Positions 4,347-51,544 of a stretch of 64,000 nucleotides of DNA are shown here, piece by piece. The position numbers and the translations under genes were made by a program. How positions within the stretch are numbered: the stretch's first letter is position 1; every line of letters begins with the position of its first letter. Source of the stretch: an uncultured Acidobacteriota bacterium (lineage in GTDB: Bacteria; Acidobacteriota; Vicinamibacteria; Vicinamibacterales; CAVVIG01); the NCBI GenBank assembly GCA_963731545.1, contig CAVSWN010000004.1, forward strand, positions 1-64,000, given 5' to 3'. Below the pieces are notes generated by a model that was given only the letters and a program-made list of their open reading frames with translations, did no database searches and was not told the origin of the DNA.

Positions 4347-4529
4347 AACTCACGGGTCTCGGCCGTCGAGAAATGGCCGGTTTTGCCCTGTCCACTAATT
4401 GCCGGTTTTCAGCTGGTCCACCGAGGGAAAGAAGTAAGAAGCGTTGAGCACTAGACCAAGGAGGGCGATATTCACGTGGGCGATTCCTCGGAAGGCGCCG
4501 GAACTGTACTCTCCTGCTTGCGTGGCTCA

Positions 4530-4661
4530 CTTGATCGCGATGTGCGTGTCTTCCGTCATGATGAAAGAGGGCACCTGCGGGCGCTCGTCGTCGATGTCGA
4601 TCACCTGAATCGGTTTCCCGTGGAGACGCTCGGCGAGCGCCGCGATGGCCACCATTTCGGT
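4530..4661 (-). repeat. Copy 1 of a ~60-130 bp repeat family (c-repeat) carrying tandem ATCGAC hexamers and a conserved TTTCATCATG; contains a 42-codon minus-strand ORF
   Basis: 62 bp nearly identical (1 mismatch) to 13684-13745 and ~75% identical over ~110 bp to 14195-14300; all three copies in the same orientation. Confidence 0.6.
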
Positions 4662-4763
4662 CCTGCATCCTCGGTGTCACCCCGAACCGTCGCTTGACGG
4701 CGGAGGCGGATCCGAACGCGACCAGTACCCAGAAGTCCACGACGTCAGCACGGCCGCCGTGGA

Positions 4764-5063
4764 TCACGCCTCCAAGAGGAACCGGAACCCGTCGAATCGT
4801 GCCGCTGCGCCTCCGCCGTCGGTAGTGCGGACGACCTCGCCGACGCACACATGCTTGCCAGACGCCATCGATCCCACGTCGATCGGCGGCGACACGATCA
4901 CTTCGATAGGCGTTCCCAGCATTAAGTACGCTGGCCCGAAGAGCACGCCGGTCTGGCTGATGTTGACGACGCGACTCTGAAACCACAGTTGATCACCGGT
5001 TCGGCGATACGAGATCGGAATCGCCAGCGACAACCGTTCCGCGCGGGGCCTAATCGCCATCAT
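4764..5063 (-). CDS. PilZ-domain protein (c-di-GMP binding), ~100 aa
   Basis: MMAIRPRAERLSLAIPISYRRTGDQLWFQSRVVNISQTGVLFGP… matches RxxxR…(D/N)xSxGG PilZ signature; start taken at internal Met of ORF 4764..5345. Confidence 0.5.
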   Translation of the reverse strand: MMAIRPRAERLSLAIPISYRRTGDQLWFQSRVVNISQTGVLFGPAYLMLGTPIEVIVSPPIDVGSMASGKHVCVGEVVRTTDGGGAAARFDGFRFLLEA

Positions 5064-19287: not shown

Positions 19288-20142
19288 CTAGGCCGGCCGA
19301 TGCGACAGCAGGAAGCTGCGAACGTGGCGCACCGCCAGCGGAATCTTCTCCGGGGTGTCTTTCCAGGGGTACATGCTCAGTTGGCCTTTTGGCGCGAGCA
19401 TCGCGCTCTCGATCGCGACGGTCAATGAATGCCCCGCGGTGTCGTCCGGCAGGACGAGTACCGGCGTCTGACAACTCTTCACGAAGTCGCGCGTCACCGT
19501 GAGCACGAAGTCAGGGTTGGTGCGGAACATTCTGGTCAGGAATCGATCCGCCATGTCAGCCGTGATCTCCGAGCGCCGCTTGACCAGCGGTTCGCCCCAA
19601 CCGGTTTTCTGACTGTCATAGAGCGCATTCGGCAGCTCCGGCCGGAACCCGACCGGCTGCGCCGGCACCGCCGCGACGACGCGATTGGGCGCCCGTTTGA
19701 TGAGGTTCCAGATGAACGGCCCGGCAATGCAGAAGCCGAGCACCATGAACTTGTCGATCCCGAGGTGATCCATCAGACCGAGATGGTCGTCGGCGTAGGA
19801 ATCCCACGGCCGGTCGATCTCGAGCGGGCCGGTGGATTGACCGGCCGAGTTGCGCAGGTCAGCGTAGATGCAGCGGAACTCTCCCTTGAACGCCTCGATC
19901 GTGTTGAAGGGATTGCCGCCGCGGATGCCCGCGATCGTCGAGCCGTTCAACCCCCCGCCCGGGATGAGCAACAGCGGGAAGCCCGAGCCTGTCTCCTCAT
20001 AGCGGATGCGGACATTCCCTTTCTGGTAGAAGCGTCCGCTTTCTGCGTTCCCGCCCTGCTGCGCGAACGCTGACGGCGTCGCGGCCATCGCCGCCGCCGC
20101 AGCGCCGGTCTTCAGAAGCTTGCGTCTGATTGGATCCACCAT
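19288..20142 (-). CDS. Alpha/beta-hydrolase fold protein with Tat signal peptide
   Basis: MVDPIRRKLLKTGAAAAAMAATPSAFAQ (twin-Arg); …FPLLLIPGGGLNGS…HLGIDKFMVLGFCIAGPFIWN. Confidence 0.75.
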   Translation of the reverse strand: MVDPIRRKLLKTGAAAAAMAATPSAFAQQGGNAESGRFYQKGNVRIRYEETGSGFPLLLIPGGGLNGSTIAGIRGGNPFNTIEAFKGEFRCIYADLRNSAGQSTGPLEIDRPWDSYADDHLGLMDHLGIDKFMVLGFCIAGPFIWNLIKRAPNRVVAAVPAQPVGFRPELPNALYDSQKTGWGEPLVKRRSEITADMADRFLTRMFRTNPDFVLTVTRDFVKSCQTPVLVLPDDTAGHSLTVAIESAMLAPKGQLSMYPWKDTPEKIPLAVRHVRSFLLSHRPA

Positions 20143-20168
20143 ACGTCCTCCTCCATGGTACCGACGCC

Positions 20169-21200
20169 TCAGATGCGCGTCCGCGCAGTGTAGCAGCCAT
20201 CGACGAACGTTCTCTTGATCGACTCCGGCGTCTCGATGGCCCGGAAAAAGCTCTCCAGGTAATCCTTCATCTCGCGTTTGTGCGTCAGCTCCAGCTCGTT
20301 CACGGAGTCGATCGCTTCAAACATGTCGGCCCTGCGCGCACGAAACGGCTCCGCGGCCGTGTTGAACTCGCCGACGGTCCGGCATGGACCTCGATACAGG
20401 CGATCGGTCACGCTGCGCTGGCGCAGGCGCAGGCGGGGATCCGGGTTGGCGTAGGGCGCATGGACCATCCCCGACATGTCGAAATCGTACGGCACCGGCA
20501 CCAACGTGCGCGTCTTGTCTTGCACGATCAGCACGTTGTGCAGCCCCCAGATTGAAAAGTCGACGTTGCCGAGCATGTACTCGAGCAGCATCATCGTCGT
20601 GAGCGCCAGCGTGGTCGAGGTCTTTGAACAGGAGCTGCGGCACCGGCACGTCGCGGCCGCTCAACCGGCGCGCCACGTCGTTCTCGTGCTCCAGAAACAT
20701 GGCGCTGTGCGTCGAGACTCCGCTTCTTCGATCTCGACTCGACGTAGCGTGGCCCGGACCAGACGAGCGCGGAACGTCGCGGGCGTCACCAGGTTGGCGA
20801 GTCTGTAGGCGAGGTATTCGCGCATCACGTACTGGTCGAACTCCCTCGCGTTCTGGCAGTGCGTGCCAAGTTTCAGCGTCGTCTGCCCTTCGAACACCGT
20901 CCCCGCCATCTGTGCCGGCGCGAACACGACCTTGATCGGTACGAAGTCGCACGTGGTGCGTTTCAGGCGGAAGTGCCCGCGCGATCCGAGCGTGACCGCG
21001 ATGTCCCTGCCGTCAATCGTCAGCACTCCGGGAAACTGCTTCGAGTTGTCCGGGTTGCGCTCCTTGTTGATCAGGTTGAACTCCGACGTCAGCGTGATGT
21101 CGAGCGGCGGGCCGTCCTCAAACAGCCGCCGCTGCCTGCGCTTCGGCCCTGCGGGCAGCCAGGACGTCGTCGTCCGGCCACGGTTCGGCGAGCTGCGCAA
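20169..21200 (-). pseudogene. CotH-like protein (atypical kinase fold) paralog, frameshifted in the middle
   Basis: Three frames: …FNLINKERNPDNSKQFPGVLTIDGRDIAVTLGSRGHFRL…/…FLEHENDVARRLSGRDVPVPQLLFKDL…/MMLLEYMLGNVDFSIWGLHNVLIVQDKTRTLVPVPYDFDMSGMV…; ~75-80% aa identity to intact copy at 27878..29005. Confidence 0.6.
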
Positions 21201-21572
21201 TCGGGTTCTTCTTTGGAGGCGAGCGTCGCAGGAGAATGCTGGGCCAGGAGCGCGTCCGTGGCCAGCAGCAGCGCAAGCAGGGCGGTCGAGAAGGGAGGCG
21301 GCGTGTTCACGGCACGCCGTAGTTTACGTCCGCTTCCGGGGCCGTGCGCGCCTCGCGGTGTCAGAGCGGCGGTCCGGCCGGCAGCGTGATGAAAGAGGCT
21401 TGTTCGATTCGCTGGGCGGATCTCTGCGCGTGGACAGATCCGGCGACAAGAAACAGGCGATGAAAGACGCGGCGATACATCGCATGCGGCCTTTGACGGC
21501 AGCGGGGTGGTGTTGGTTGAAATGTGAGAGCGGATTAGAGCGAAGACGTGCGGTCGAGTTCCAAGACAAACG

Positions 21573-21986
21573 TCAGAACGATCTGTTGAGGCGGCACCGT
21601 TCCCCATGAACTGTCGCAACGACGTCCAGTTCGGTCGGTCGCATCACCATTCGGATCCATCGCTCGCCTGTCGGTTTTTGAAACGTCTCCATCTGCAGAG
21701 CCGTGCGGCCCCTGACAACCTCGCGCTTCAGCGTGAAGGGACCGATCGACTGGCCGGCATTGATCGCACTGGTTCCCTGACCGCTCAGGTCCAGCACGAC
21801 GTCAGTCCACTCGTCATGCCCGGTCGGCTGAACCACAACATCGCCCATGGTTTCGACAATCCTGGCGTCGCCGGTGAGCAGGCACGCGCCGTCCGGCCCT
21901 CGCGGATTAGGCGGTGGCGACGCGCGGAACGTGAATACAGCAGCGGTGACGACCAGCAAGATGACGACGAACCACACGACCTTCAT
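21573..21986 (-). CDS. Membrane-anchored hypothetical protein (N-terminal TM)
   Basis: MKVVWFVVILLVVTAAVFTF…. Confidence 0.5.
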   Translation of the reverse strand: MKVVWFVVILLVVTAAVFTFRASPPPNPRGPDGACLLTGDARIVETMGDVVVQPTGHDEWTDVVLDLSGQGTSAINAGQSIGPFTLKREVVRGRTALQMETFQKPTGERWIRMVMRPTELDVVATVHGERCRLNRSF

Positions 21987-22122
21987 CGATTTAGTTGCCT
22001 CGAATCGATTCTAGCAAGATCGGGCCCATTGGACCGCGAGTGCGAGTCTCGCAACTAAGCTGTCTCGTCCGCAGCGCGGGATCTATCGTTCCCCGCGAGG
22101 GCGCAGCGCGCGTTGGATCGCT

Positions 22123-22924
22123 TCAATCGCCAGGCGAGCTGATGCCCTCACTTGGGCGTCTAGAGTCGATTTGGCTGAGGCGTTCAAGAGTCTGGATGTA
22201 CGGAGCCGCTGGTGCTCCGAAAACATTCAGTGCCTGCACGGCTCCGAGACGACTACCTGGGTCCGCATGCGTCAGGGCGGTCACAATTGTGTCACGCGCC
22301 TCGTCGAAGGAGAGTTTCCGAGATTCGGGAGTCGCTTGCGGAGTAATGCCGGTCAGGGCCTCGTGGCGAATCGACGCGTTGGTGTCGACGAGCGCATCTC
22401 GCAGAATGGCACGCATCACTGGTGTGTTGTTCGGCACGAGCCTGAACGTCTTCACGACCTCGGCTCGAATCCGAGCGGAAGGATCATGGCGATACAGGTC
22501 CACGAATAACGCGACGAGCCGCTCGGGCAGGGGGCCCTCTCTCAGAGCAGGTCGTTCCAGATTACCGACGGCGAGCAGCGCCTGGTAGCGGACGCGATCG
22601 TCAGGGTCGCTCTTCAGCAGCGCGAGACAGTCATCCTCCAGTGCGTCGCGCAGCGCCTGCGGGTCGCCTTTCCATTCCGCCGGGATGACGAGCGGTTCGG
22701 GACGCGGCGCAGGACTCGGTCCCACTAACGGTCCTGACGTCCCGGCACCACCGCGTGGCTAAGGCGCGTCCCATCAGAACGCCCAATGCGCTCATCCGCA
22801 CGTCAGCCGAGGAGTCGTGCAGCCCGGCACGTACCACCGCAATGACTTCGCCGATTGCGATGTTCATGCGTGACGATGTGATGTCGGTCAGGACTCTAAC
22901 CTTCCCGGCTATGGTCGGCGGCAA
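22123..22924 (-). CDS. HEAT-repeat protein, frame change ~22700
   Basis: DDRVRYQALLAVGNL / SARIRAEVVKTF / NASIRHEALTG repeats; upstream segment DSSADVRMSALGVLMGRAL in second frame. Confidence 0.55.
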
Positions 22925-23051
22925 TGAAGTCGCCGATGGACATCGCAGACTGCTGAGTGCCGATGAGCGCCAGGAGCAGCGTCGTCGTGGACGAGAATGT
23001 TGCCACGTGGCTGCTCCTATGACACGAGGCTAACCAGCAAACCGGCCGGTC

Positions 23052-23612
23052 TCATCGCGAATCCTGCCGATACCAGCGACTCCCAACCAACTTGTAGTGG
23101 AACGTGGTTGGCGAGGCGCTCAGCCGAGGCGTTTCGTAGGTTACTTCAAGCAGATTGCCGTTGATCTTCATGGGGTGATCAGTTGCCGTCCGAATTTCGG
23201 TGCCGCTGTCACGTTGAATCTGGTCTTGCGTCAGGATGCTGACGAGTGAGGGTTTCCCGCGGGAGCAGCGGAAGACGTAGGTGTCGGTCACGTGAAAATT
23301 GCCTGAATTGCTTCCGTACTTCGCGACGACGGCTGCGTCCTCGACCTCGTCTCCAGTCAGATCCCCGAATGCGACGTCGACAATGTCGAGATACAGAAAT
23401 CCCTGGTAGCCCTGGCGGTGCGGGTCTTCGTAGCGCCCGTCAATGACCATGGGCTGCAGCACGCGCCCGTTTGTGAAGCGGGGCTCGTTCAGCGGATAGA
23501 CGAGATTCTTGACATCGATCCCACGCGCATCACGGCAGCGCTGGACCCTCTGCGCCGTCATCGAGGCCATCGACGCCGACGCGACCGCGGCGCACAACAG
23601 CAATCCTTTCAC
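23052..23612 (-). CDS. Putative lipoprotein/secreted hypothetical protein
   Basis: VKGLLLCAAVASASMASMTAQ… signal/lipobox-like start inside ORF 23052..23933. Confidence 0.45.
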   Translation of the reverse strand: MKGLLLCAAVASASMASMTAQRVQRCRDARGIDVKNLVYPLNEPRFTNGRVLQPMVIDGRYEDPHRQGYQGFLYLDIVDVAFGDLTGDEVEDAAVVAKYGSNSGNFHVTDTYVFRCSRGKPSLVSILTQDQIQRDSGTEIRTATDHPMKINGNLLEVTYETPRLSASPTTFHYKLVGSRWYRQDSR

Positions 23613-23696
23613 TAAGTTGATCGTACCATTGCGCTCGGAGGGCCGGTAGCCCGGAAGAGGAGCGTGTAACGCGCAGTTCCGTGCAGAAGAGACCAG

Positions 23697-24252
23697 ATGA
23701 GAAGGTTCATCATCACCGGCGCGCCGGGTGCAGGGAAGACAGCGATCATCCGTCAGTTGGAACTCGACGGGTTCAGCGTCGTCGAAGAGGCCGCTACTGA
23801 CGTCATCGCTGCCGCGCAAGCTCAGGGAACGGTTCAACCCTGGACGGATCCCTCGTTCATTGATGCCATCGCTCATCTGCAAAGGGACCGTCAGATTCGA
23901 GCGTCGTATCAACCGGATGAGGTTCAGTTTCACGACCGTTGCGCTGTGTGCACCGCGGCGTTGGCAGTCTACCTCGGCTACCCGTTTTCACCGTTTCTTA
24001 AAGGCGAACTGGAGCGCATCAAGAAAGAAGCGATCTACCAAAACCGAGTCTTCTTCATTCGCAATCTTGGCTTCATCACGCCTACCGAAGCGCGGCGAAT
24101 CAGCTTTGAGGAAGCGGCTGCGGTTCGAGAAAATCCACGAAGAGACCTACCGAGACTTCGGATTCGAACTGGTCTCGGTCGAGCCAGGAAGCGTGGCGGA
24201 ACGGGTCAGCATGATCAAGGCGGCAATTGGCAGTGCTAAAGTGCCGCGCTGA
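23697..24252 (+). CDS. P-loop AAA-family ATPase (small predicted ATPase), frame change ~24110
   Basis: MRRFIITGAPGAGKTAIIRQLE… Walker A; C-terminus continues in ORF 23728..24252 frame (…RFEKIHEETYRDFGFELVSVEPGSVAERVSMIKAAIG). Confidence 0.6.
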
Positions 24253-24313
24253 TGAGATCGGGCGTCATCACGTCGCGCTAGTCGGCGGCGAAGGCTCGCC
24301 GAGCTTTTGGACT

Positions 24314-24793
24314 CTACCGATAGGCCTGCACGACGGTCACTTCTCCATTCCCAAGGTAGACCCCGCACCCAAACTCCCTCGTGGCCGGGTGCGTCATGGT
24401 CTGATAGTGCTCGCCGGTGGGCCCTTGCGCCCACATCGTGGCGAGGCCCTGTCGAATCACGGCGCGAACCGACCCGTAGATCCTCAACGACCACCACGGA
24501 ATTTCGTTCTCAAAGCGCACGTAACCACCGCTGAAATTGGTCGAGTTGGCGTAGGCGTGCGCATTGTGCCGGCTGCCGTCGAACTCGGCAGCCGTCGCGG
24601 CGTAGTCGTCGAGCGACGAGGATTGTTGCAGTGCGGCCCGGTTCAGCGTCGCTCGGTACCTGTTGATTTCGCTGAGACAGAACTGGAGATTGGCTGCGGC
24701 AGCACCCGATCCAGGCTCGAGTGGCGCGTAGGCGCACGCGGCCGCAAGGATCGTGGCGAGACCGACTAAGACGCCGGCCGCAAGTCTCACCAC
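24314..24793 (-). CDS. CAP/SCP/PR-1 domain secreted protein
   Basis: Signal peptide MVRLAAGVLVGLATILAAAC; …HYQTMTHPATREFGCGVYLGNGEVTVVQAY. Confidence 0.7.
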   Translation of the reverse strand: MVRLAAGVLVGLATILAAACAYAPLEPGSGAAAANLQFCLSEINRYRATLNRAALQQSSSLDDYAATAAEFDGSRHNAHAYANSTNFSGGYVRFENEIPWWSLRIYGSVRAVIRQGLATMWAQGPTGEHYQTMTHPATREFGCGVYLGNGEVTVVQAYR

Positions 24794-25160
24794 GCGTGTT
24801 GGGCGAATCGTCGCGTCAATTTCGGGGAAGAGTGTACTGCCGAGGCTGATCGAATCGAAAAAGTTTCAGAAACAACTGTCGAGGTTAGGCGACGACCTGC
24901 CGCCGATCGGTCGTGCGTCAGCCAGGCAGGCGAGTCGCAGCCACCGATCGTCGTCGCGCCGCCGCGACTAGTTTGTAAGTCTCGTCGATGAACGTCTGCG
25001 TGCGCGCGAGCTCTTTCGCCAATCGCCTGAAACGGTCCAGCAATTCGCGCAGCCGCTTGACGTTGACCTCGTTTCTCACACCGCTCTTGAGTGCGACATT
25101 CGTACCACTGTCGTCGTTGCCGTGATCCGGTATCGCGATTGCTTTGCGCGGAGGCTGACA

Positions 25161-26475
25161 TGGCCAACGACGAACACGACAAAGCACAACAGGCACTGCG
25201 CGCAGTGACGCGCCGCCGGTTTCTTCGGAAGTCGCGGCGGCGACCGGTGTCGTGGCCTTTGGCGACCTGGCCTCGCTCGGTCCAGCGCTCGCGCAAGGGC
25301 TTCCGGCACCCGACTCGTCAGGGATCGATCACATCATCGTGTTGATGATGGAAAACCGATCCTTCGATCACATGATGGGCTGGGTAGACGGCGCCGACGG
25401 TCGACAGAAAGGACTGACATACCTGGATTCGGCGGGCCAGCCACACAAAACATTCCGACTGGCGCCCGATTTCCAGGGCTGCGGCCACCCGGATCCGGAT
25501 CATTCGTACGAAGGTGGACGCATCGAATACAACAGCGGCGCGTGCGACGGCTGGTTGAGAGCCGGGGACAACGATGCGTTCTCGATCGGGTACTACTCGA
25601 AAAAGGACCTCGCCTTCTATGCCGCGGCGACGACGCAATGGACGGTGTGCGACCGCTACTTCTCGGCCATCATGGCCGGGACGTTCGCCAATCGGATCTA
25701 CCAGCACGCCGCGCAAACCGATCGGTTGGCCAATACGTTCGAGCTGAGCACTCTGCCGACGATCTGGGATCAGCTGGCGAATGCCGGACTCGACGGACGG
25801 TACTACTTCAGCGACGTCCCGTTTCTTGGCCTCTGGGGCAGCAAATACGCGTCGATCGGTCGTCCGTTCAGCGCGTTCCTGGCAGACGCTGCAGCTGGCA
25901 CCCTGCCGCACGTGGCGTTCGTCGAGCCGCGTTTCCTTGGTGAAGAGCTCGGACTGTCGAACGACGACCATCCCTTCGCGGACGTCCGGAACGGGCAGGC
26001 GTTCATGAATCTGGTGTATGCCGCCGTCACGCGAAGTCCGGCGTGGCCGAACACCGTGTTCATCATCAACTACGACGAGTGGGGCGGCTTTTTCGACCAC
26101 GTTCCTCCGACGGCGGCCCCTATCCCGCCAGCGGATCAGATCGCCGGCAATCAAGACGGGCTTCGCGGATTCCGGACACCGTGCCTCGTTGTCTCGCCGT
26201 TTGCCAGGCGGGAACATGTGTCCGGCCTCGAGCTCGATCACACGTCGGTTCTCAGGATGATCGAGTGGCGATGGGGATTGCCTCCGCTCACCGTCCGCGA
26301 TGCGACGGCGAACAACCTGGCCGAGATTCTTCGCTTCCCGGCGACGGACTTTCGTGCGAAGCAATTCAAGGTTCCCGCAGGTCCATTCGGGAATCTGTGC
26401 GTGCCTCCATTGCCGCACGACGAAGAATGGCAGCCGCTGTTGGATATGGCCGCCGGCTCCGGTTGGCTATTGTAA
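25161..26475 (+). CDS. Phosphoesterase family protein (phospholipase C/acid phosphatase type) with Tat signal; frame change ~25240
   Basis: MANDEHDKAQQALRAVTRRRFLRKS (Tat motif, ORF 25091 frame) then …IDHIIVLMMENRSFDHMMGW…INYDEWGGFFDHVPP. Confidence 0.8.
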
Positions 26476-26534
26476 GTAGTGTCCGCCTTCAGGCGGACCT
26501 CGAAAAGTCCGGCTGAAGCCGGACACTACATCGC
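26471..26534. repeat. Inverted pair of REP-like elements (GTAG + palindrome)
   Basis: GTAGTGTCCGCCTTCAGGCGGAC … GTCCGGCTGAAGCCGGACACTAC between convergent genes. Confidence 0.6.
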
Positions 26535-27291
26535 CAGGTCCGCGACGACGGGGAAGTGATCGGACGCGGCGGCGGCCTCGGCGTCGGTGACCACGTCGCA
26601 CGAGATCACCCGATCGGCAAAGCCGCGCGGCACGAACACGTAGTCCAGCCGCACATGCGGATCCCAGGTCGGCATCGTCAGTCCCGGCTTGCCGGGATGT
26701 TTGGTTCGGTACGAATCGACATACCCCGCGTCCAGAACCGTCTGAATCGTCCGCCAGCGGATCTGTCCGCCGCTGCCCCAGACGAACGGCCGAAGCCGGA
26801 GCGGCAGGCGGTTGGTGTCGAGCAGCTCGCCGGGCGCGAGCGTATTGAAGTCTCCGGCGAGCACGTGAAACCCGTCCTGATGGCGCTTCACGCTGCGCAG
26901 AAGCGCCCGCAGCTCGTACACGCGCCGCTGTTCGGTCCACGCCGCATGAACCGCGCTCAGGTGCACGCCGAAAATGCGGATCCGTTCCCCGGCCGGCACC
27001 ACCTCGATGAACGCGTGTCGCGAGACGAACGGCCGGCGCCATGTGGCCTGAGCGACAGGCTGCCGGCTGAGGAAGCCAAGCGACTGCCGGCGAGACGTCC
27101 CCCAACCGGCCATCTCCGTCAACGACGCGAGGCGCTCCACCGTCGCCCGATCCGTCGCTTCCTGCAAGCACGACGACGTCGGGCTCGCAGGCTTTGATGA
27201 CGCGCGCGATGCGCTCGACGCGTGCGCGGCCGCCGCGCTGGATGTTGTACGTGAGAAGCCGGAAGCTCACGCCTCGTCCGGTTTGCTGCAC
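26526..27291 (-). CDS. Endonuclease/exonuclease/phosphatase (EEP) family protein; frame change ~27160
   Basis: N-term …FRLLTYNIQRGGRARVERIARVIKACEPDVVVL (ORF 26467..27291) + …IFGVHLSAVH…LAGDFNTLAPGE…SDHFPVVADLAM (ORF 26526..27167). Confidence 0.7.
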
Positions 27292-27737
27292 AGGACGAGA
27301 TACGGCTGATCGAGCAGATCGCCGCGAAACTGGATGACGATCTCGCGCGAGGCCTGAATGTTGACGGGGCGCTGCACCATGGCCATCAGTCGCTCGCGCA
27401 GCGGAACCAGATCCGGCGCGATGTCGGGATCGTCTTCGCTGACGGGCCGCGAGTGGACGCCAGGCACGAAGAATCCGGTCAGCTTGAACAGGCCGATCGC
27501 TTTCTCACCGACCAGCGTGACGTCCAGGTCGCTCGTTCCGGGACCCTCGGAGTCGAATGGCGCGTGGTCTTTCCAGCGGTACCCCGTGACCGCGCTGCCG
27601 CGAAGCACAACGGTTGTGCCCGCGGGAATCTCGTCGACCAGCGTCCGGCAGAATGCTTCGTAGCTGTCGGCGCGGCCGCGAAAGGCGAGCCGAATCACAT
27701 TCTCGCGTTTTGCCTCATCGGTTAAGCCGCCTTGCAC
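27267..27737 (-). CDS. Hypothetical protein with possible minimal nucleotidyltransferase-like GS…DxD motif, overlapping the EEP gene start
   Basis: …VVLRGSAVTGYRWKDHAPFDSEGPGTSDLDVTLVGE…; GTG start; 25-nt overlap with downstream EEP gene. Confidence 0.35.
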   Translation of the reverse strand: MQGGLTDEAKRENVIRLAFRGRADSYEAFCRTLVDEIPAGTTVVLRGSAVTGYRWKDHAPFDSEGPGTSDLDVTLVGEKAIGLFKLTGFFVPGVHSRPVSEDDPDIAPDLVPLRERLMAMVQRPVNIQASREIVIQFRGDLLDQPYLVLCSKPDEA

Positions 27738-27877
27738 ACGTCTGTGTCTGGTCCATATCCTGCAGTTCGAACTGAGCAAGAAAACAGCCAGAGGATTTCT
27801 GCTGAGCTGTTCTAACTCGTTGACGTGCTGGTGGTAGGATGACGCCAAAATCCAGGCGCTTCACCCAGGAGCCACCT

Positions 27878-29005
27878 ATGACGCGCCGTCTTTCCGCTGC
27901 CGCGCTGCTCGCCATCGTCCTGGCTGCACCGGCGGTGCTCGCGCAGAACCCTCCGGCCGCGGCGCCGGCCGCGAAGAACCCGATGCTGAAGCTGGTCGAA
28001 CCCTGGCCAGAAGACGACGTGATCGCGACGCGAAAGAGCGAAGCCGAGGCGCGGAAGCTGTTTCAGGACGGCCCTCTGCTCGAGTTCACGCTGACGACCG
28101 ACTTCAAGCTGCTCAACAAGGAGCGGAACCCGAACAACTCGAAGCAGTTCCCCGGAGTGCTGACCGTGGACGGCAAGGAGATCCCGGTCACGCTCGGGTC
28201 GCGCGGCCACTCGCGGCTGAATCCGCGCACGTGCGAATTCGTGCCGATCAAGGTCGTGTTCCCGGCGGACAAGATCGCCGCCACGATTTTCGAAGGGCAG
28301 ACGTCGCTGAAGCTCGGCACGCACTGCCAGAGCGACAGAGAGTACGACCAGTTCGTGATGCGCGAGTACCTCACCTACAAGCTCGCGAACCTCGTGACGC
28401 CGATCTCCTTCCGCGCCCGGCTGGCGCGCGGCACCTACGTCGACGTCAAATCGCAGAAACCGATCTCGACGCACAGCGCCCTGTTCCTCGAGCACGAGAA
28501 CGACGTGGCGCGGCGGCTGGGCGGCCGCGACGTCGGCGTGCCGCAGCGGCTGTTCAAGGACCTCGATCCGGGCGCGCTGACGACGATGATGCTGTTCGAG
28601 TACATGCTCGGCAACACCGACTACTCGATCTGGTCGCTGCACAACGTCGTGATCGTCCAGGACAAGAAGCGCACGCTCATCCCGGTGCCGTACGATTTCG
28701 ACCTGTCCGGCATGGTCCATCCGCCATACGCGCAGCCGGATCCGCGGCTGCTGTTGAAGAGCGTGACCGACCGCCTGTACCGCGGCCCGTGCCGGACGGT
28801 GGAGGAGTTCGACGCGAGCGCGCAGGCGTTCCGCGCGCGCAAGGCCGACATGTTCGCGGCGATCGAGTCGTTGAAGGACCTGAACGGCGCCCACAAGGGC
28901 GAAATGAAGGACTACCTGGAAGGCTTCTTCCGGACCATCCAGACGCCGGAATCGATCAAGAAAACATTCGTCGACGGCTGCAAAACGACCCGCGCCCGCG
29001 TCTAG
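27878..29005 (+). CDS. CotH-like protein (intact paralog) with signal peptide
   Basis: MTRRLSAAALLAIVLAAPAVLAQ…; …MLFEYMLGNTDYSIWSLHNVVIVQDKKRTLIPVPYDFDLSGMV matches CotH LGNWD…HNYY…IPWDLDLSFG pattern. Confidence 0.65.
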   Translation: MTRRLSAAALLAIVLAAPAVLAQNPPAAAPAAKNPMLKLVEPWPEDDVIATRKSEAEARKLFQDGPLLEFTLTTDFKLLNKERNPNNSKQFPGVLTVDGKEIPVTLGSRGHSRLNPRTCEFVPIKVVFPADKIAATIFEGQTSLKLGTHCQSDREYDQFVMREYLTYKLANLVTPISFRARLARGTYVDVKSQKPISTHSALFLEHENDVARRLGGRDVGVPQRLFKDLDPGALTTMMLFEYMLGNTDYSIWSLHNVVIVQDKKRTLIPVPYDFDLSGMVHPPYAQPDPRLLLKSVTDRLYRGPCRTVEEFDASAQAFRARKADMFAAIESLKDLNGAHKGEMKDYLEGFFRTIQTPESIKKTFVDGCKTTRARV

Positions 29006-29034
29006 CGCGTTCTCCATTTCGAGGTAGAGCTTCC

Positions 29035-29120: not shown

Positions 29121-29282
29121 GCCACGGACGTATCACCGATCCAAAAGCGCATAAGCGACAGGTCCAACCCGGCACGAGATTCGCTGTCAGAGCGCCCCGT
29201 ACGGTGAGATCCGTGCAACGGCGCGGATTTGACCGCGTCTCGATTTCAGATCTGCCATTGCGATTGCAGGTTTGGGTTGGCT

Positions 29283-29849
29283 ATGAAGCGAATACTCGTG
29301 GGTGTGCTTGCGCTGGTCTCGGCGGGCGCGACGCTCGGGGCTGAGACGCCGCAGCAGACGTTTGCCAAGGCGTGGGAAGGCCGCACCGTCACGGTCAAGG
29401 CAACCCTCTACAGCTTGATCTACAACGAGCGCGGCAAACTCGGCACCACCCGAAGCGGGCTGCGCGAAGGTCTTGTCGTCGCCACGCCGTCGCAAGGCGC
29501 GTACTTCCAGTTCGACGGACGCCAGGGCCGCCCCGAGGTCATGCAGCGGAAGCTGGACCGCTTCGTCGTCGCGGTCAACACCGCCTACCAGCCCGATGCG
29601 CTCGATGTCCGGTCGTACCGGAAACTCGAAGCGGTCGCGATCAACCGCTACGATCCGGGAGTGGAACTGGTCGTGAGCGGCGTGCGCGTCGGCGTCGATC
29701 AGGTGACGTTCGAGTTCGCCGCGGCGATCGGCGACGAGGCCGTCACCGCGGTCAAAGTCAAGTGGCCGGTGCCGCTCTCGAAGGTCTTCACCGAACGCCC
29801 GCTCGTCCTGGAAGCGCTCGAGCAGTTCGTCGAATTCAAGCAGCCCTAG
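29283..29849 (+). CDS. Secreted hypothetical protein
   Basis: MKRILVGVLALVSAGATLGAETPQQ signal peptide. Confidence 0.55.
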   Translation: MKRILVGVLALVSAGATLGAETPQQTFAKAWEGRTVTVKATLYSLIYNERGKLGTTRSGLREGLVVATPSQGAYFQFDGRQGRPEVMQRKLDRFVVAVNTAYQPDALDVRSYRKLEAVAINRYDPGVELVVSGVRVGVDQVTFEFAAAIGDEAVTAVKVKWPVPLSKVFTERPLVLEALEQFVEFKQP

Positions 29850-30255: not shown

Positions 30256-31143
30256 TTACTTCGTCGGCTGCAGAAGCTCGCGAATGCCGCCGAGCGCGCC
30301 CATGATGCCGCTCGTCTCGTACGGCAGAAACACCAGCTTCTGCGCGTTGTTCGCGATCTGGCCGAGCGACTCGAGGTATTTCTGGGCGATCAGGTATTGC
30401 GCGGGGCTGTCCCTCGCGCCCAGCGCCTCCGCGACAACCTGGATCGCCTGCGCTTCGGCTTGCGCCACGCGCAGCCGCGCCTGCGCCTGGCCCTCGGCGG
30501 CCAGGATGGCGGCTTCCTTCGAGCCCTCGGCGTTGACGATGGCCGCCTGCTTCTGGCCCTCGGCCCGCAGAATCGCCGACGACTTTTCGCCCTCGGCGGT
30601 GGTGACAACGGCGCGCCGCGTGCGCTCCGCCGTCATCTGCTTCTCCATCGTCAGGCGAATCTCTTCGGGCGGCGTGATGTTCTTGAGCTCGATGCGCATC
30701 ACCTTGACGCCCCACTGCTGCGTCGCGGTATCGAGCGCCGCGCGCAGCTGCGAGTTCGTCGTGTCGCGCGAGGCGAGCGTGTGATCGAGATCGAGCTGAC
30801 CGATGACATTGCGGAGCGCCGACAGCGTCAACTGCTCGAGACCCCAGCGGAGGTTCTGCACCTCGTAGGTGGCCCGCACTGGATCGGCGATCAGGTAATA
30901 GATGACCGCGTCCACCTCCATCGTCACGTTATCGCGCGTGATGACGGGCTGCGGTTCGATCTTCGTGATCTGCTCGCGCAGGTCGATCGTGTCGCGGACC
31001 GAATCGAGGAACGGCACGATGGTGTTGAGGCCGGCTTCCGCCGTGCGGTGGTAGCGGCCGAGGCGCTCGATGATCTTCACCTGCTTCTGCGGGACGATCT
31101 TGATCGTCCGCATCAACACGATCAGCAGCACCAGCGCGATGCC
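30256..31143 (-). CDS. SPFH/band-7 (stomatin-like) protein
   Basis: MNSIVFFGIALVLLIVLMRTIKIVPQKQVKIIERLGRYHRTAEAGLNTIVPFLD…EAEGQKQAAI…; ATGA overlap with NfeD stop. Confidence 0.85.
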   Translation of the reverse strand, partial: GIALVLLIVLMRTIKIVPQKQVKIIERLGRYHRTAEAGLNTIVPFLDSVRDTIDLREQITKIEPQPVITRDNVTMEVDAVIYYLIADPVRATYEVQNLRWGLEQLTLSALRNVIGQLDLDHTLASRDTTNSQLRAALDTATQQWGVKVMRIELKNITPPEEIRLTMEKQMTAERTRRAVVTTAEGEKSSAILRAEGQKQAAIVNAEGSKEAAILAAEGQAQARLRVAQAEAQAIQVVAEALGARDSPAQYLIAQKYLESLGQIANNAQKLVFLPYETSGIMGALGGIRELLQPTK

Positions 31144-31611
31144 GAAAAAGACGATGCTGTTCATGAGCGAGTGACCTCCAGCACGATGCCGTCCGCGCCG
31201 ACGACGCGGACTTTGACCCCGGCCGCGATGACCTCGGTGCTGCGCGCCGCCCAGTCTTCGCCGGACGACGGTCACGCGGCCGGTGCCGATGGTCGGATCG
31301 ATGTCGTGGGTGACGAGTCCCTGGCGGCCGATCAGCGGATCGGTGCGGGACGGCACGCCTTTGCCACCGAGAAGGCCGACCAGCGTGGAGCGCAGCATCA
31401 CGAGGGAGACGATCATGACGACGGCGAAGGTGCCGATCTGGATCGGGACGCCGAAGCCGAAGTACGCGGAGGCCGCCGCGGCGATCGCGCCGGCGCTGAT
31501 GAACGCCGACCCGAAATGCGGAACCGACAACTCGATGACGGCGGCCACGAAGGCCACCGCCAGCCACGCGAGCATCGTGAACTCTCGCACCCAGTCGGCG
31601 ATGAAGTTCAT
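31140..31611 (-). CDS. NfeD-family membrane protein (stomatin operon partner); frame change ~31250
   Basis: MNFIADWVREFTMLAWLAVAFVAAVIELSVPHFG…LIGRQGLVTHDIDPTIGTGRVTVV then other frame GEDWAARSTEVIAAGVKVRVVGADGIVLEVTRS*. Confidence 0.7.
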
Positions 31612-32063
31612 AGGCGGAACAGCGGACGGCCGTTGGCAAAGCCCGGCCACGGAATCCCGATGAGCATCAGTGCGGCCGCGAGGCCGAAGCAGATCAACAG
31701 CCGCCTGCGCTGCGCGTCGGCCTGCGACGCCTTGCGCGCGAGGGCCCGGCCGATGTGCGCCAGGATCACGGCGCCGAACATCGACGTGATGTGCTCCACG
31801 GCCCAGAAGCGCAGGTTCGAATCCCGCATGGCCGCGCCGAAATTCTTCATCGCTTCGGCCGTGAACGGGCTCAGCGCGAAGTAGAGCAGGAGTCCCAGCA
31901 GCATCTGCAGATCGAGGGTCGCCATGGCGGCGAGACTCCAGCGATCGGCTGACCCGCGGTCGGCCGGGAGTCGAATCCGCAGCGCGGCGAGCAGCGTGCC
32001 GACGGCCGCCACCAACGCAATCCAGCGAAGCCAGGAATGTATCAGGAGGACGCCGCTATACAT
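31608..32063 (-). CDS. Small polytopic membrane protein, first gene of membrane-NfeD-SPFH operon
   Basis: 4 predicted TM segments; stop overlaps NfeD ATG (ATGA). Confidence 0.5.
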   Translation of the reverse strand: MYSGVLLIHSWLRWIALVAAVGTLLAALRIRLPADRGSADRWSLAAMATLDLQMLLGLLLYFALSPFTAEAMKNFGAAMRDSNLRFWAVEHITSMFGAVILAHIGRALARKASQADAQRRRLLICFGLAAALMLIGIPWPGFANGRPLFRL

Positions 32064-35930: not shown

Positions 35931-37250
35931 TCCTCAGCGATGCTGTAGAGGAACTGGTAGCTGCGCAGATAGATCTCGTTGTCGACGAGGGCCGGCGACG
36001 CATCGAACCCGTCATCCAGCTTGTTCTTCGCCAGCACCTCGAACGCCGGACCGTGCTTGATGACGAGCGTCATGCCTTCGCGCCCGGGGAAGTACACGCG
36101 GCCCTGGGCGCCGACCGGCGAGGCGAACACGTTCGGCACGCCGTCGAGGCGCTGCAGCTGATAGTGCGGCGTCCCGCTCTTCGCATCGAACGCGGAGAGG
36201 ATGCCGGAATTGGTTTTCAGGAAATAGAGAATGCCGTCGTAAAGCAGCGGCGAGGGCACGTACAGGCGTGTCGCGATCGAGCGTCCACGCTTCGGCGCTT
36301 GGATGCTGACAGGTCGCCCTTCGCGTCGGCCAACCGGATCGCGCGCAGCCGATTGCCCCGGAAGCCGCTCATCAGGAACACCATGCCGTCCGCCGCCACC
36401 GGCGACGGAATCGGATTCATCGTCAGACCCGGGCCTTCCCAGACGATCTGGCCGGTTCTCGACGTCGTAGCTCCGCACCTTGCTCATCGCCGGCGCGATC
36501 ACCTGCGCGCGGCCGCCGTGCTCGACGACCAGCGGCGTGGCCCAGGTGTCGATCTCTTCGCGGTTGGCGCGCCACAGCTTCCTTGCCGGTCGCGCGCGTC
36601 GAGCGCCACGATGAACGACTGCCCCTGATGGTCCCAGACGATGACGAGGCGATCGCGGTAGAGGACAGGCGTGCTGCCCTCGCCGAACTGGTTGCGCATC
36701 TTCTTGTCGCCGAGGTCCTTCTGCCAGAGCGGCTTGCCGTCCATGTCGTAGACGTACATGCCCTGGGACTCGAACCACGCGTAGACGCGCTGGCCGTCGG
36801 TGATCGCCGAGCTCGACGCGTACGTGCCGTTCTCGCCGTGCGCGGCTTCGTGCGGCAGTTCTTCGCGCGCCGTCCGCTCCCAGACCGTCTTGCCGGTCCG
36901 CCGATCGATGGCGAGCACGACGAAGCGGTAGCGGTCGCGCGGCCGCAGCCCGCCGCGCGGCTCGTGCGCGGCGGCGCCGGTGACGCCGACCGGGACCGCC
37001 GACAGGACGAACACGCGGTCGTTCCAGACGACAGGCGACGCCGAGCCGCGGCCGGGCATCTCCACCTTCCAGCGAATGTTCTTGGTCTCGCTCCACTCGA
37101 GCGGAGGGTTGGCGGTTCTCGACACGCCCGTGGCATAGGGCCCGCGCCACTGGGGCCAGAACCGTTCGTTCGGGTTCGATTGCGCCGCCGTCGCGCCTGC
37201 GGCGCTCTGGCGTGCCAAGGCTGCGGGCACCGCGGCGGTCACAACGCGCG
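35890..37250 (-). pseudogene. PQQ-like beta-propeller repeat protein (BamB-like), paralog 1; several frame changes
   Basis: …WPQWRGPYATGVSRTANPPLEWSETKNIRWKVEMPGRGSASPVVWNDRVFVLS… (ORF 36499..37242) and C-terminal …LYVPSPLLYDGILYFLKTNSGILSAFDAKSGT…VDNEIYLRSYQFLYSI within ORF 35354..37648. Confidence 0.55.
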
Positions 37251-37318
37251 ATCAGCGCCGCGAGCGGCAATCGTCCGATCATCGCGCGAGTGTACGTATG
37301 GGCTTTTACCTGTGGAAA

Positions 37319-38476
37319 CGATGAATGGTCCTTTCGATTTTCAGCTGCGCACCCGCATGGTGTTCGGCGACGGCGCGCTGGCTCGGCTGGGGGATCTCGC
37401 GCGTGAGTTGGCGTTTTCGCGCACGCTCGTCGTCGCGGATCGCGGCCTCGTCGCGGCGGGGCACGTCGACCGTGCGATCGCGATCCTGGACGGACGCGTC
37501 GATCGCGACGTGCCGCTTTCACGAGTTTGGCGCCAATCCGGACGCGCGAATGGTCGAGGCCGGACGGCGCGTACGCCGCCGAGGGAGCGATTGATTCCAT
37601 CGTCGCGCTCGGCGGCGGCAGCTCGCTCGATTGCGCCAAGGGCATCAATTTCGTGCTTCACCAACGGCGGCACGATGCGCGACTACCGCGGGTTCGGCAA
37701 GGCGGCGCGGCCGATGCTGCCGTCGATCGGCGTCCCGACGACGGCGGGGACGGGCAGCGAGGCGCAGAGCTACGCGCTGATTTCGGATGCGGAGACGCAC
37801 GAGAAGATGGCGTGCGGCGATCCGAAGGCCGCGTTCCGGATCGCGATTCTCGATCCCGCCTTGACCGTGTCGCAGCCGCGGGAGGTGACCGCCGTCGCCG
37901 GCTACGACGCGATCTCGCACGCGGTCGAGTCGTACGTCACGACGCGGCGGACGCCGATGTCGAGCCTGTTCGCGCGCGAGGCGTGGACGCTGCTCGAGGG
38001 CCACTACGAGCACGTGCTGCGCGAGTCCACGCGACCTGGCGGCGCGCGGCGCCATGCTGCTGGGCGCGCACCAGGCCGGCGTCGCGATCGAGCAGTCGAT
38101 GCTCGGCGCCACGCACGCCTGCGCCAATCCGCTGACCGCGCGTCACGGGACGACGCACGGCGTGGCGATTGCCGTGATGCTGCCGCACGTCGTGCGCTGG
38201 AACGCCGGCCACGTCGGCGACTCGCTACGCGGACTTGCTGCGGACAGCCCGACGGATCCGCGGATGACGCAGTCGACGCGGCCAATCGCCTGGCCCATCG
38301 CCTCGAAGTGCTCGCGCGGGCCGGCGGCCTGCCGGCGACGCTGCAGCGACCTGGGCGTCCCGCGGGACGGATTGTCGGCCCTGGCCGCGGATGCTGCGAC
38401 GCAGTGGACCGGGACGTTCAATCCGCGGCCGTTCGATGCCGCCGCCGCGCTCGCGCTGTACGAGCGCGCGTTTTGA
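37319..38476 (+). CDS. Iron-containing alcohol dehydrogenase family protein; multiple frame changes
   Basis: MNGPFDFQLRTRMVFGDGALARLGDLARELAFSRTLVVADRGL… / IDSIVALGGGSSLDCAKGINFVL / …GVPTTAGTGSEAQSYALISDAETHEKMACGDPK… / …GTTHGVAIAVMLPHVVRWNAGHV…. Confidence 0.65.
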
Positions 38477-41400
38477 GGACCGGCGCTTCCGGCAGGTGAC
38501 GGCTCAGATAGTCGGCCACAACCTGCACGTGCGGCGGCTGAAGCAGCGTGAGGTGCTCGCCCGGCACGTCGTAGATCCTCAGCTCGCGCTTGATCAGGTG
38601 TCCCCACCCGAATGTGCCGCCGCGCCGGCTCGTGTCCGCTGAGGCTTTCGTGCGGAAAAGGATCGCGGACCCGTCGTACGGCGTTGGCCGATACCTGCGG
38701 ACGGCGAGGTCCTGAGCGATTCGCACATTTGACGTCTGCACGCGAATCCGTTCTCCGGACCGTTCGCGACGCCGGTACGCGCGGTCGCAGCCGAGCCCGT
38801 TCGCGCCACGCTCTGATGATCTCGAGAACGAGCCCGGGCCTGTCGATCCATTTCTGGGCGAGCAAACGACGCGTGTGCTTCAGCGAAGTTCTCTCAATGG
38901 CGAGCCATCTGTATTTGAGCGATTCGAGTGGCGGTAGCCGTTTGGGACGTCCAAGCGCCGGCGAGTCGAAGAGCGCCAGCACGGCGACTTCCTCTCCCTC
39001 CGCGCGCAGCCGGCCCGCGACTTCCACGGCGATGCTGCCGCCGAGGCTCCAGCCGGCCAGACAGTACGGGCCGGACGGTTGCAGGCGCCGGATTTCGCCG
39101 GCGTAGTGCGCCGCCATGTCCTCGATGCGAACGTGCGCCGGCTGGCGTCCGTCGACGCCGAGCGCCTGGAGTCCGTAGAGCGGCTGGTCGCTGCCCAGCG
39201 CCGCGCTCAGATCGCGGAACCCGAGCACGCCGCCCCCCAGTCCGTGCACGCAAAAGAGCGGCGCCTTCGATCCGAAGGGCTGAATGGACACCAGCGACGT
39301 GTCGTCGGGCGCACAGCGCGACCGGATCGCAGCCGCCAGCTGTTCGACGGTCGGCGCCTGGAACAAGGCCGACGCCGGCAGCCTTGCGCCGAAACGTATG
39401 GCGATGTGATCGAAGACGCGAATGGCGGCCAGCGAATCGCCGCCCAGATCGAAGAAGTTGTCCATGGCGCCGATCGAGGGGATCCCGAGCAGTTCCTCCC
39501 AGATCGCTGCCAGTTCGCGCTCGGTCTCGTCGCGCGGCGCGACGAAGCCGCGCGCGTCCCGAAACGGCTGGCGGCGACGGGAGCGCGCGCCGGTCCACTT
39601 TGCCGTTCGGGCTCAAAGGCAATGCGTCGAGCATCACGAATGCAGCGGGGATCAGCTCCTGCGGCAGCGTCGACTGCGCGAAGGCGCGCAAGGCGGCCGC
39701 CGACACCGGTGCGTCGTCGCGACAGACGACGTACGCGGTCAGGAGTTGGTCGCGACCCGATGTCGCGCGCACCGCGACGAGACATCGCTCGACGGCCGGG
39801 TGCGCGAGCAGCGCCGCTTCGATCTCCGCCGGCTCGATTCGGAAGTCCTCGAATCTTCACCTGATGATCGAGGCGGCCGAGAAAATCGATATTGCCGTCA
39901 GGCAGGTATCGCGCCAGGTCGCCGCTCTTGTACATGCGCGCCCCGGGCCGATCGACAAACGGATCGGGCACGAACGCGCGCGCTGTCAGGTCCGGCCGCT
40001 TCCAGTAGCCGCGGCCCACCGGCACGCCAGCGATGTGCAATTCCCCCGGAACGCCCGACCGGCACCGGCGTGCAATCGCGCGATCGAGGATGTGCATGCG
40101 CGCGTTGGCGATGGGCCGGCCAATCGGAACCGTCTCGGGAGTGGCGCCGCGCTCGCACCGCCATGACGTGACCTCAACCGCCGTCTCGGTCGGTCCGTAC
40201 AGGTTGAAGAGATCCGCGCCCAGACGATCGAAGAACTTGGCTTGAACCTCCGGCCGGAGCGCCTCGCCGCTGGTGATGACGTAGCGCAGGCTCGTGCACT
40301 GCGTGACATCGGGCTCGTCGAGGAACACATCGAGCATCGGCGGCACGAAGTGGATGGTCGTGATGTGCTCGCTGCGAATCAGCCGCGACAGGTAGGCGTT
40401 GTCCTTGTGCCCTCCGGCCGCGCCAGCACCAGCCGCGCACCCGCAATCAACGGCCAGAAGAGCTCCCAGACCGACACGTCGAAGCTGACCGGTGTTTTCT
40501 GGAGCACGCTGTCCGACGTGCCGAAGCTGAAACGCCTCCTGGCCCCAGAGGAGCCGGTTCGCCACCGCACGATGCGGGTTCATCGCGCCCTTCGGCTGAC
40601 CCGTCGAACCAGACGTGTAGATGACGTAGGCGAGGTGCTCGACCGACATCTCGACGTCGAGATTCTCGTCGCGACACATCGCCCGCACCTCGGGCGCATC
40701 CACGCACACGACACGAGCCTCGGACCGCGGGAGACGCGCAACGAGGTGTCGCTGGGTGAGGACGACCGGCGGTTCGGCGTCGCCGATCATGAACGACAGG
40801 CGCGCGGGCGGGTAGGCCGGATCGAGAGGCACATACGCGCCACCCGCCTTCAGAATGGCGATCAAGCCGACCATCAAGTCGAGCGAACGGTCGATGCACA
40901 CCCCAACCAGGACGTCCGGTCCGACGCCCAACTCGCGCAGTTCCGATGCGAGCCCGTTCGCACGCTGATTGAGCTCGCGATATGTGAGGTGGCTGCCTTC
41001 GCAGGTAACCGCCACGGCATCTGGCGTGCGCGCGACCTGCTGCTCGAAGAACTGATGCACCAGCAGCTGCGGGTAGTCGACCGCGGTGTCGTTCCACTCG
41101 ATCAGCAGTCGCCGGCGCTCGGCCTCCGACAGCGTCGCCGCGGTCGAGTACCGAGGCGATGGGCGCGTCCGGCATCTCGATGGCCTGCTCGAGTAGACGC
41201 TGGAAGCGTGGAAGCACGTCAGGCGCACGCTCTGGAGCAAAGGCGGCGGGTCGATAGTGCAACCGTACGCTGAGCCCCATCCTCATGCGGTTTGACGTAC
41301 AGGAGCAGATCGAGCTGCGGCATCTGCGCGGCGACATCGAGCGGAGCAAACGTCACACCGCCGCCGGTCTCCCGCGCGTACGCGTGATCGACGAAATCGA

Positions 41401-51200: not shown

Positions 51201-51544
51201 TGCCGACGTAGAGGATGTTCGGATCGGAGGGCGCGACCGCGACCCAGCCGATCGATCCGGTCGGCTGGTCGTCGAAGATCGGCTTCCACGTGCGGCCGGC
51301 GTCGGTGGTCTTCCAGACGCCGCCGTTGCACATGCCGATGTAGAAGGTGTACGGATGGCTCGGATGTCCCGCCGCCGCCTTGGTCCGGCCGGCGCGGAAG
51401 GGCCCGATGTTGCGCCAGCGCATCTCGGCGAAGAGGCGTCGGGCTGATCTGCGGTGTCTGCTGCGCGGGGAGGGAGATCGAGAACACCCCGCCGAGCAAC
51501 AGCATGAGGAGAAAGGCAAGAAGGGCGCGATGAATTCGCTTCAC
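48281..51544 (-). CDS. Large secreted BNR/Asp-box repeat protein (sortilin/glycosyl-hydrolase-like beta-propellers); many frame changes
   Basis: Signal MKRIHRALLAFLLMLLLGGVFS; Asp-box repeats WKTTDAGRTW, FRSTDGGQSF, FKSTDGGTTW, YRTHDGGKTW, YTTADGGLHW, VTLNGGQTW spread over ORFs 50425..51519, 49400..50509, 49282..50166, 48852..49238, 48281..48794. Confidence 0.6.

Follow-up and report, generated by a model that had tools for sequence, protein, structure and literature searches.

A pair of apparently old CotH-like paralogs around an interval with changing gene content in a Vicinamibacterales contig

Results

Two CotH-like genes on opposite strands

We analysed 64,000 nucleotides (nt) of DNA from an uncultured soil bacterium of the Acidobacteriota (GenBank assembly GCA_963731545.1, contig CAVSWN010000004.1, positions 1 to 64,000; hereafter the window), in which two homologous genes for exported proteins resembling the Bacillus kinase CotH lie on opposite strands and enclose an interval of 6.5 kb. 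The right-hand gene, copy A, is intact; its open frame is 27839-29005 (+), with the likely start at 27878, which matches the length of its homologs (∼375 amino acids, aa). The left-hand gene, copy B, is broken by frameshifts as the sequence is written. The two copies form an inverted repeat of ∼1.05 kb that consists of five gapless blocks with 73-87% identity (20164-21211 versus 27973-29010), a similarity far beyond chance. Over 1,114 aligned nt the copies are 78.2% identical, and their proteins are 72% identical. An earlier reading of the same DNA (the initial annotation) had given the two copies an identity of ∼75-80% and had placed them on opposite strands at essentially these coordinates, a placement that our measurements bear out; its end of copy B at 21200 is slightly short, as a candidate GTG start lies at 21310. 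It had also considered that the copies might be ancient paralogs devoid of nucleotide similarity. The similarity exists, so this does not apply: the copies are old and have not been homogenised.

The nearest public relatives are metagenome-assembled genomes (MAGs) of Vicinamibacterales (Acidobacteriota). Base-by-base comparison was limited to the two loci that are sufficiently close, one in the MAG MFD06229.bin.2.32 (L001, the same locus as L002; ∼94.7% DNA identity to the window) and one on a 12.2-kb ENA metagenome scaffold (L012; 88-94% identity to the window). Copies A and B are each 94-95% identical to their own ortholog in L001 compared with 78% between the paralogs, indicating that the duplication is older than the split of these genomes; the synonymous divergence (dS) between A and B is 0.5-0.6. 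In a neighbour-joining tree, copy B from the window, L001 and L012 formed a long-branched clade of its own that was not sister to copy A. Neither the tree nor the ortholog and paralog identities gave any sign of gene conversion between A and B, and thus no sequence has passed between the paralogs since a time before these genomes split. A metagenome scan for further copy B orthologs returned nothing closer than 69% identity. Judged from these alignments, A and B appear to be old, divergently transcribed paralogs on either side of a short stretch whose gene content varies.

Remote members of the CotH-like kinase clade

The initial annotation had assigned the pair to the CotH family, an atypical protein kinase, from a sequence signature. 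At the level of structure the link to CotH is clear: the protein has the CotH-type atypical protein-kinase fold, and CotH is its closest structure by a wide margin. At the level of sequence the link is marginal. Copy A matched the Pfam CotH profile (PF08757) with 16.5-16.6 bits (E 0.006), below the gathering cut-off of 23.8 bits, and the fragments of copy B did not match it. The local match (profile positions 166-217) spans residues 227-280, which contain the catalytic motifs. Pfam CotH was the sole family that all 20 close homologs matched consistently (best E 2e-6), and, with scores of 28-31.6 bits, nine members at 41-60% identity to copy A exceed the cut-off. NCBIfam did not name the CotH-like proteins of the locus. 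Thus, the fold and the catalytic motifs of the proposed signature stand, and membership by the Pfam cut-off does not.

Some profile comparisons speak against the assignment. Searches of PDB sequences with family alignments of 20 and 49 sequences did not retrieve CotH (5JD9). When the family alignment was compared in hhalign with an alignment of 25 Bacillus CotH sequences, built from the 5JD9 sequence and its homologs, the match had a probability of 1.8% (E 0.028) over 95 columns of the N-lobe only and was not significant; neither was the hhalign match to a single CotH sequence. On the other side stands the conservation of the active site. Residues K145, E163, D248, H255, N256, D273, D275, C119, C150 and C305 are invariant in 83 sequences (down to ∼40% identity), and C368 is nearly invariant in the same set, which gives four conserved cysteines. 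D248 of copy A belongs to a GNTD motif, H255 and N256 form an H-N pair, and D273 and D275 lie in YDFD. The catalytic residues D228 and D251 of B. subtilis CotH lie 23 residues apart (PMC7821199), compared with a spacing of 25 between D248 and D273 in copy A, and we infer that the two catalytic sites are equivalent residue by residue. The N-terminus of copy A is a typical Sec signal peptide. The copies are thus remote, exported members of the CotH-like kinase clade, without being Pfam CotH proteins by the curated threshold.

The family to which they belong is large. Clustered at 50% identity, it comprises 3,540 representatives that match with E ≤ 1e-3, 1,377 of them with E ≤ 1e-30, and is annotated almost wholly as hypothetical; of the 240 matches listed, 9 came with a precomputed Pfam assignment to CotH. 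Members are frequent in Acidobacteriota and are found in Planctomycetota and Gammaproteobacteria too. The gene neighbourhoods of distant family members revealed no shared operon partner. On two other Vicinamibacterales contigs (L013 10001-13869 and L014 996-5166), a CotH-like gene stands beside a gene for a Hanks-type Ser/Thr kinase of ∼900 aa with a PD40/Tricorn propeller (Pfam), with a 4-nt overlap between the genes in L013. A kinase-like N-terminus beside the CotH-like gene at L004 3864-6551 was read by eye only. A functional link between the CotH-like and the Hanks-type kinases is possible in those contigs; the pairing is absent from the window. At L010 8694-11963 (a Planctomycetota MAG), 3 nt separate a CotH-like homolog (35% identity) from a downstream ORF of 720 aa that reads by eye as a putative polyphosphate kinase 1.

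The interval varies in content and keeps its orientation

In L001 and L012 alike, the hydrolase gene is followed by copy B (-), a variable interval, copy A (+), a gene for a conserved hypothetical protein, Band_7 and NfeD. The interval of the window measures 6.5 kb, and those of L012 and L001 measure 3.4 and 1.2 kb, respectively. In L012 it contains genes for DnaJ, a 232-aa protein, CAP, EEP and a nucleotidyltransferase-like (NT-like) protein, with the DnaJ and 232-aa genes in place of the membrane-protein, HEAT, AAA_28 and phosphoesterase genes of the window. In L001 it holds an unrelated gene for a 204-aa lipoprotein-like protein together with remnants of the CAP (73 nt) and EEP (151 nt) genes. 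More distant relatives have a single CotH-like copy and none of the interval genes within 10 kb. The initial annotation had likened this content to an island of secreted effectors. The interval genes indeed largely encode exported proteins, a part of the proposal that is supported; a coherent island was not supported, as close relatives differ in what the interval holds. Such variability is a trait of mobile islands, and it was the only one seen here: we detected neither integrase nor transposase domains between 20 and 29 kb, no tRNA in a scan of the window and no match to a defence system in PADLOC. The interval is therefore a small region of gene flux and no defined mobile island, and its changes between relatives appear, from the three aligned loci, to have come about through gain and loss of gene blocks and not through inversion.

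Inversion deserves a closer look, as the initial annotation had proposed that the paralogs act as recombination substrates and that the interval flips between two orientations. An inverted repeat of ∼1.05 kb does flank the segment and the interval is evolutionarily unstable; in having two inverted homologous sequences of ∼1 kb around a segment of a few kb, the locus is like known inversions between rrn operons or insertion sequence (IS) copies. Those inversions, however, use near-identical repeats or a site-specific recombinase, whereas here the arms are only 78% identical, their longest exact match is 23 nt and the ORFs (open reading frames) of the interval contain no recombinase or invertase domain. 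An exact match of 23 nt does not exceed the minimal processing segment that RecA requires. The lack of gene conversion between the copies points the same way. Moreover, relative to both flanks the CAP, EEP and NT-like genes are arranged and oriented alike in the window, L001 and L012, and the opposite orientation of the interval was not seen among these three. Of the features of an invertible segment, only the inverted repeats at the borders are thus present; repeats of sufficient similarity, a recombinase and a second orientation are not. We consider flipping of the interval very improbable, and the inversion polymorphism that the initial annotation had suggested looking for in related genomes did not appear in L001 or L012. 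We found no mechanical role for the inverted arrangement, and neither it nor the proposed island points to a new mechanism; in this respect the locus is fairly ordinary.

The frameshifts of copy B are most likely consensus errors

In the sequence as written, five single-base insertions (near 20609, 20718, 20747, 21133 and 21223) scatter the coding sequence of copy B over three frames, and the initial annotation had called this frameshifted copy a pseudogene. None of the five is common to L001 or L012. The ortholog in L012 (779-1777, -) is open in one frame throughout the kinase domain, and copy B of L001 has one different +1. With the five insertions removed, copy B of the window is a complete ORF without stops that has a signal peptide and keeps every family-invariant residue. 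The ratio of nonsynonymous to synonymous divergence (dN/dS) of the repaired copy B is 0.25-0.28 in all three pairs, with no excess in the comparisons that involve the window; the corresponding values are 0.15-0.19 for copy A and 0.10-0.21 for the hydrolase. When indels of 1-2 nt were polarised in three-way alignments of the window, L001 and L012 (7.5 kb), the window had 11 insertions and 0 deletions, L001 had 10 and 0, and L012 had 0 and 0 (sign test for 21 insertions versus 0 deletions, p = 1e-6).

Two accounts of these lesions can be given: the five insertions may be errors of a long-read consensus, or copy B may be a genuine, very recently inactivated pseudogene, a dispensable duplicate with five real insertions, while the EEP, AAA_28 and phosphoesterase genes are decaying as well. 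The best argument for inactivation is the clustering of the lesions. A stretch of ∼620 nt in copy B holds five frameshifts, and neither the adjacent hydrolase gene nor copy A has any; such clustering of 4-5 insertions is expected from relaxed selection on a dead gene and not from uniform random error (P about 0.02). The frame is disrupted in at least three more genes of the interval, the reduction of the L001 interval to 1.2 kb with CAP and EEP remnants means that real erosion occurs here, and the separate +1 in copy B of L001 fits as well. In addition to the clustering, the consensus-error account has to reckon with the frameshift of the phosphoesterase gene, which is of a -1/+2 type, unlike the +1 seen elsewhere, and with the ∼6 substitutions on the window branch of copy B (computed from pairwise distances), from which the dN/dS of that branch is inestimable, leaving room for a very recent inactivation. 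Several observations nevertheless argue against a pseudogene. The broken frame is the only mark of one that copy B bears, as we found no relaxed selection, no stops in the repaired frame, no mixture of insertions and deletions and no lesions shared with relatives. In the two long-contig genomes every polarised small indel, 21 in total, is an insertion, L012 has none, and bacterial mutation is deletion-biased. A branch with 4-5 insertions for ∼6 substitutions would imply a mutation spectrum that is implausible. Lesions of the same type also occur in NfeD and in a PQQ-propeller gene (35938-36797) with 5 window-specific and 9 L001-specific insertions; with these removed the latter is free of stops and has a dN/dS of 0.09-0.21, so it is too constrained to be dead and serves as a control for copy B. 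Furthermore, the L001 MAG is Nanopore-only and was polished once with Medaka (PMC12313526), and the insertion-only pattern that it has in common with the window points to consensus errors. We therefore regard consensus insertion errors as the most likely source of the copy B frameshifts, with fairly good though incomplete confidence, and a recent inactivation as unlikely. Single-base consensus insertions are also the most likely cause of the frameshifts in the EEP, AAA_28, NfeD and PQQ-propeller genes of the window, as far as the alignments allow this to be judged. The pseudogene call is thus correct for the frame as written and doubtful as a statement about biological inactivation, given the insertion-only lesions, the stop-free repaired frame, the purifying selection and the intact L012 ortholog; most likely both copies are functional genes.

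Similar differences were seen farther along the window. The PQQ/beta-propeller region at 35938-38477 (L001 15961-18547; L012 11378-12237) differs from L001 by ∼45 single-base indels, and against L012 all indels are lineage-specific insertions; the region looks like a local failure of the long-read consensus in both MAGs and not like a pseudogene. NfeD loses its C-terminus through a +1 insertion at 31265 that neither L001 nor L012 has, and the same insertion fuses NfeD with Band_7 (a 464-aa ORF, 30256-31650, -). A PQQ_2 propeller gene carries two +1 insertions relative to L001 at its 5' end (44957 and 45131), and its ORF (45042-46253) has 403 aa compared with 440 aa in L001. A systematic basecalling error in the A[G]CGT context, to which three copy B insertions belong, was considered and rejected, as the counts of ACGTGG and AGCGTGG in the window match those of the related loci. 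A plot of GC content at third codon positions by frame was too noisy to map the frameshifts of the window.

Genes of the interval and its flanks

The coordinates of the two copies, the interval genes and the flanking genes are listed in Table 1.

Table 1. Genes at the CotH-like locus of the window
Feature	Position	Strand	Remarks
Alpha/beta hydrolase, left flank	19288-20142	-	Pfam Abhydrolase_1; adjoins copy B in L001 and L012
Copy B, CotH-like gene	20169-21310	-	Stop at 20169, candidate GTG 21310; broken as written
Small protein, 137 aa, N-terminal hydrophobic helix	21573-21986	-	No family match; absent from L001 and L012
HEAT-repeat protein	22123-22725	-	Pfam HEAT_2, E 1e-11; absent from L001 and L012
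Putative exported protein	23052-23612	-	Candidate GTG 23612, then hydrophobic stretch LLLCAAVASASMA; no family match
AAA_28 P-loop NTPase	23697-24252	+	Pfam AAA_28, profile 1-151 in one frame, 130-164 in the next
CAP/SCP-domain protein, lipoprotein-like signal	24314-24793	-	Pfam CAP
Phospholipase-C/acid-phosphatase-type phosphoesterase	25160-26475	+	PF04185, E 4e-67; partial TIGR03396/TIGR03397 matches; window only
Endonuclease/exonuclease/phosphatase (EEP) family protein (Exo_endo_phos)	26526-27270	-	Pfam; +1 insertion at 27167 splits the gene between ...DVVVL and QEATD...
NT-like small protein	27267-27848	-	GS...DLD motif; L012 ortholog 162 aa, 89% protein identity
Copy A, CotH-like gene	27878-29005	+	Intact, 375 aa, Sec-type signal peptide (...AVLA/Q)
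Conserved hypothetical exported protein, right flank	29229-29849	+	Band_7/NfeD genes then on minus strand

Pfam searches agreed with the families that the initial annotation had named for the interval (HEAT_2, AAA_28, CAP, Phosphoesterase PF04185 and Exo_endo_phos), with the exception of its NTase-like protein, which had no match in Pfam or NCBIfam; the GS...DLD motif, read by eye, is reminiscent of minimal nucleotidyltransferases. The phosphoesterase had been described as secreted by the twin-arginine (Tat) pathway. The enzyme family was confirmed, and the Tat signal (ATG 25160, TRRRFLRKS; MANDEHDKAQQALRAVTRRRFLRKS) does not share the reading frame of the catalytic ORF, which runs from 25252. 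The last ∼35 positions of the AAA_28 profile are matched in the +1 frame, which places a frameshift near 24110, and the HEAT-repeat gene possibly extends upstream in another frame (22631-22924). The CAP gene of L012 has 81% nt identity to that of the window, and the EEP gene is intact there (248 aa) and overlaps the NT-like gene by 4 nt. On the left, the hydrolase has 93-96% protein identity in L001 and L012 and no frameshift relative to either; its N-terminal RRKLLK motif, read by eye from the translation, looks like a twin-arginine-like signal. On the P0004 contig, as in L001 and L012, the right flank is syntenic. Within the gene at 29229-29849, ∼400 nt (29422-29821) are missing from L001, which leaves an ORF of 46 aa, and are present in L012. 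Another indel-type difference is a 5.7-kb segment (38477-44214) that is absent from L001, where its flanks abut at 18547-18589.

Other features lie farther from the pair. One ORF at 2894-4090 matches fragments of rve (integrase core) and IstB_IS21 and looks like a degraded IS21-family element; in L014, an intact IS21 pair adjoins the CotH-like gene. Direct repeats of 57-72 nt with 91-96% identity occur at 4535-4635, 13672-13743 and 14209-14309, apparently at the 5' ends of minus-strand ORFs, and the ORFs at 4276-4986 and 13742-14230 had no Pfam match. A homolog of the bacterial eRF1-like release factors is encoded at 12381-13526 (-; Pfam baeRF_family10, E 4e-27). Six 49-nt repeats with a spacing of ∼160 nt at 49573-51328 (-) encode BNR/Asp-box blades (Sortilin-Vps10-like); coding there seems to be spread over several overlapping frames, and further consensus frameshifts are possible.

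Discussion

Taken together, we think it rather probable that the locus consists of old, exported CotH-like paralogs around a variable interval, that both are functional, that the frameshifts are consensus errors and that the interval does not invert. How would such proteins work? Each probably folds as a two-lobed kinase in which K145 and E163 would hold ATP, D248 of the GNTD motif would act as the catalytic base, and N256 together with D273 of YDFD would bind metal, while two disulfides would stabilise the protein outside the cytoplasm. A point that weighs against this scheme is that the source of ATP for a periplasmic or extracellular kinase is unexplained.

The same difficulty favours an alternative, in which the proteins share the CotH-like fold without being protein kinases and are pseudokinases, adhesins or other binding proteins, or small-molecule or glycan kinases like Fam20B. 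Such a role would suit an extracytoplasmic location, as given by the signal peptide and the four conserved cysteines, where ATP is scarce, and it would suit the lack of a conserved substrate gene next to family members; fungal CotH invasins have been proposed to be adhesins or binding proteins. However, none of the 83 sequences departs from the full catalytic set (Lys, Glu, Asp, Asn, Asp), which argues for retained phosphotransfer, and the structure that is nearest by a wide margin is that of a proven protein kinase. We therefore hold this alternative to be unlikely. A bolder proposal goes beyond the locus: the family could be Sec-exported, disulfide-stabilised CotH/Fam20-like kinases that phosphorylate proteins or glycans at extracytoplasmic sites of Gram-negative soil bacteria, and the pair could mark a hypervariable cassette of secreted hydrolases in which the CAP, phosphoesterase and EEP proteins would be substrates or partners. 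This is speculative and, in our judgement, improbable.

What is new here is a large, mostly unannotated family of the known CotH-like kinase kind, and the novelty is modest. If active, the family would be extracytoplasmic kinases in non-sporulating bacteria and a worthwhile biochemical target. The locus also carries a warning of method, as frameshifts that cluster in a long-read MAG can look like gene inactivation; a simple test that exposes such false pseudogenes is whether the indels are all insertions and dN/dS is low.

Among known systems, kinases of the HipA, CtkA and PI4K type, which are cytoplasmic toxins or lipid kinases, are a clearly poorer match than CotH, and no HipB-type partner is found here. 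The structural match to the eukaryotic Golgi enzymes Fam20C and Fam20B is far weaker than that to CotH, and no sequence similarity to them was detected. From Bacillus CotH itself (PF08757; PDB 5JD9/5JDA) the copies differ in having only 15% identity to it, no CotB/CotG-like substrate genes nearby, a Sec signal peptide, four conserved cysteines and hosts among the non-sporulating Acidobacteriota, Planctomycetota and Gammaproteobacteria. What the copies have in common with it is the layout of the motifs, N-x-D ... H-N ... P-[WY]-D-[YF]-D.

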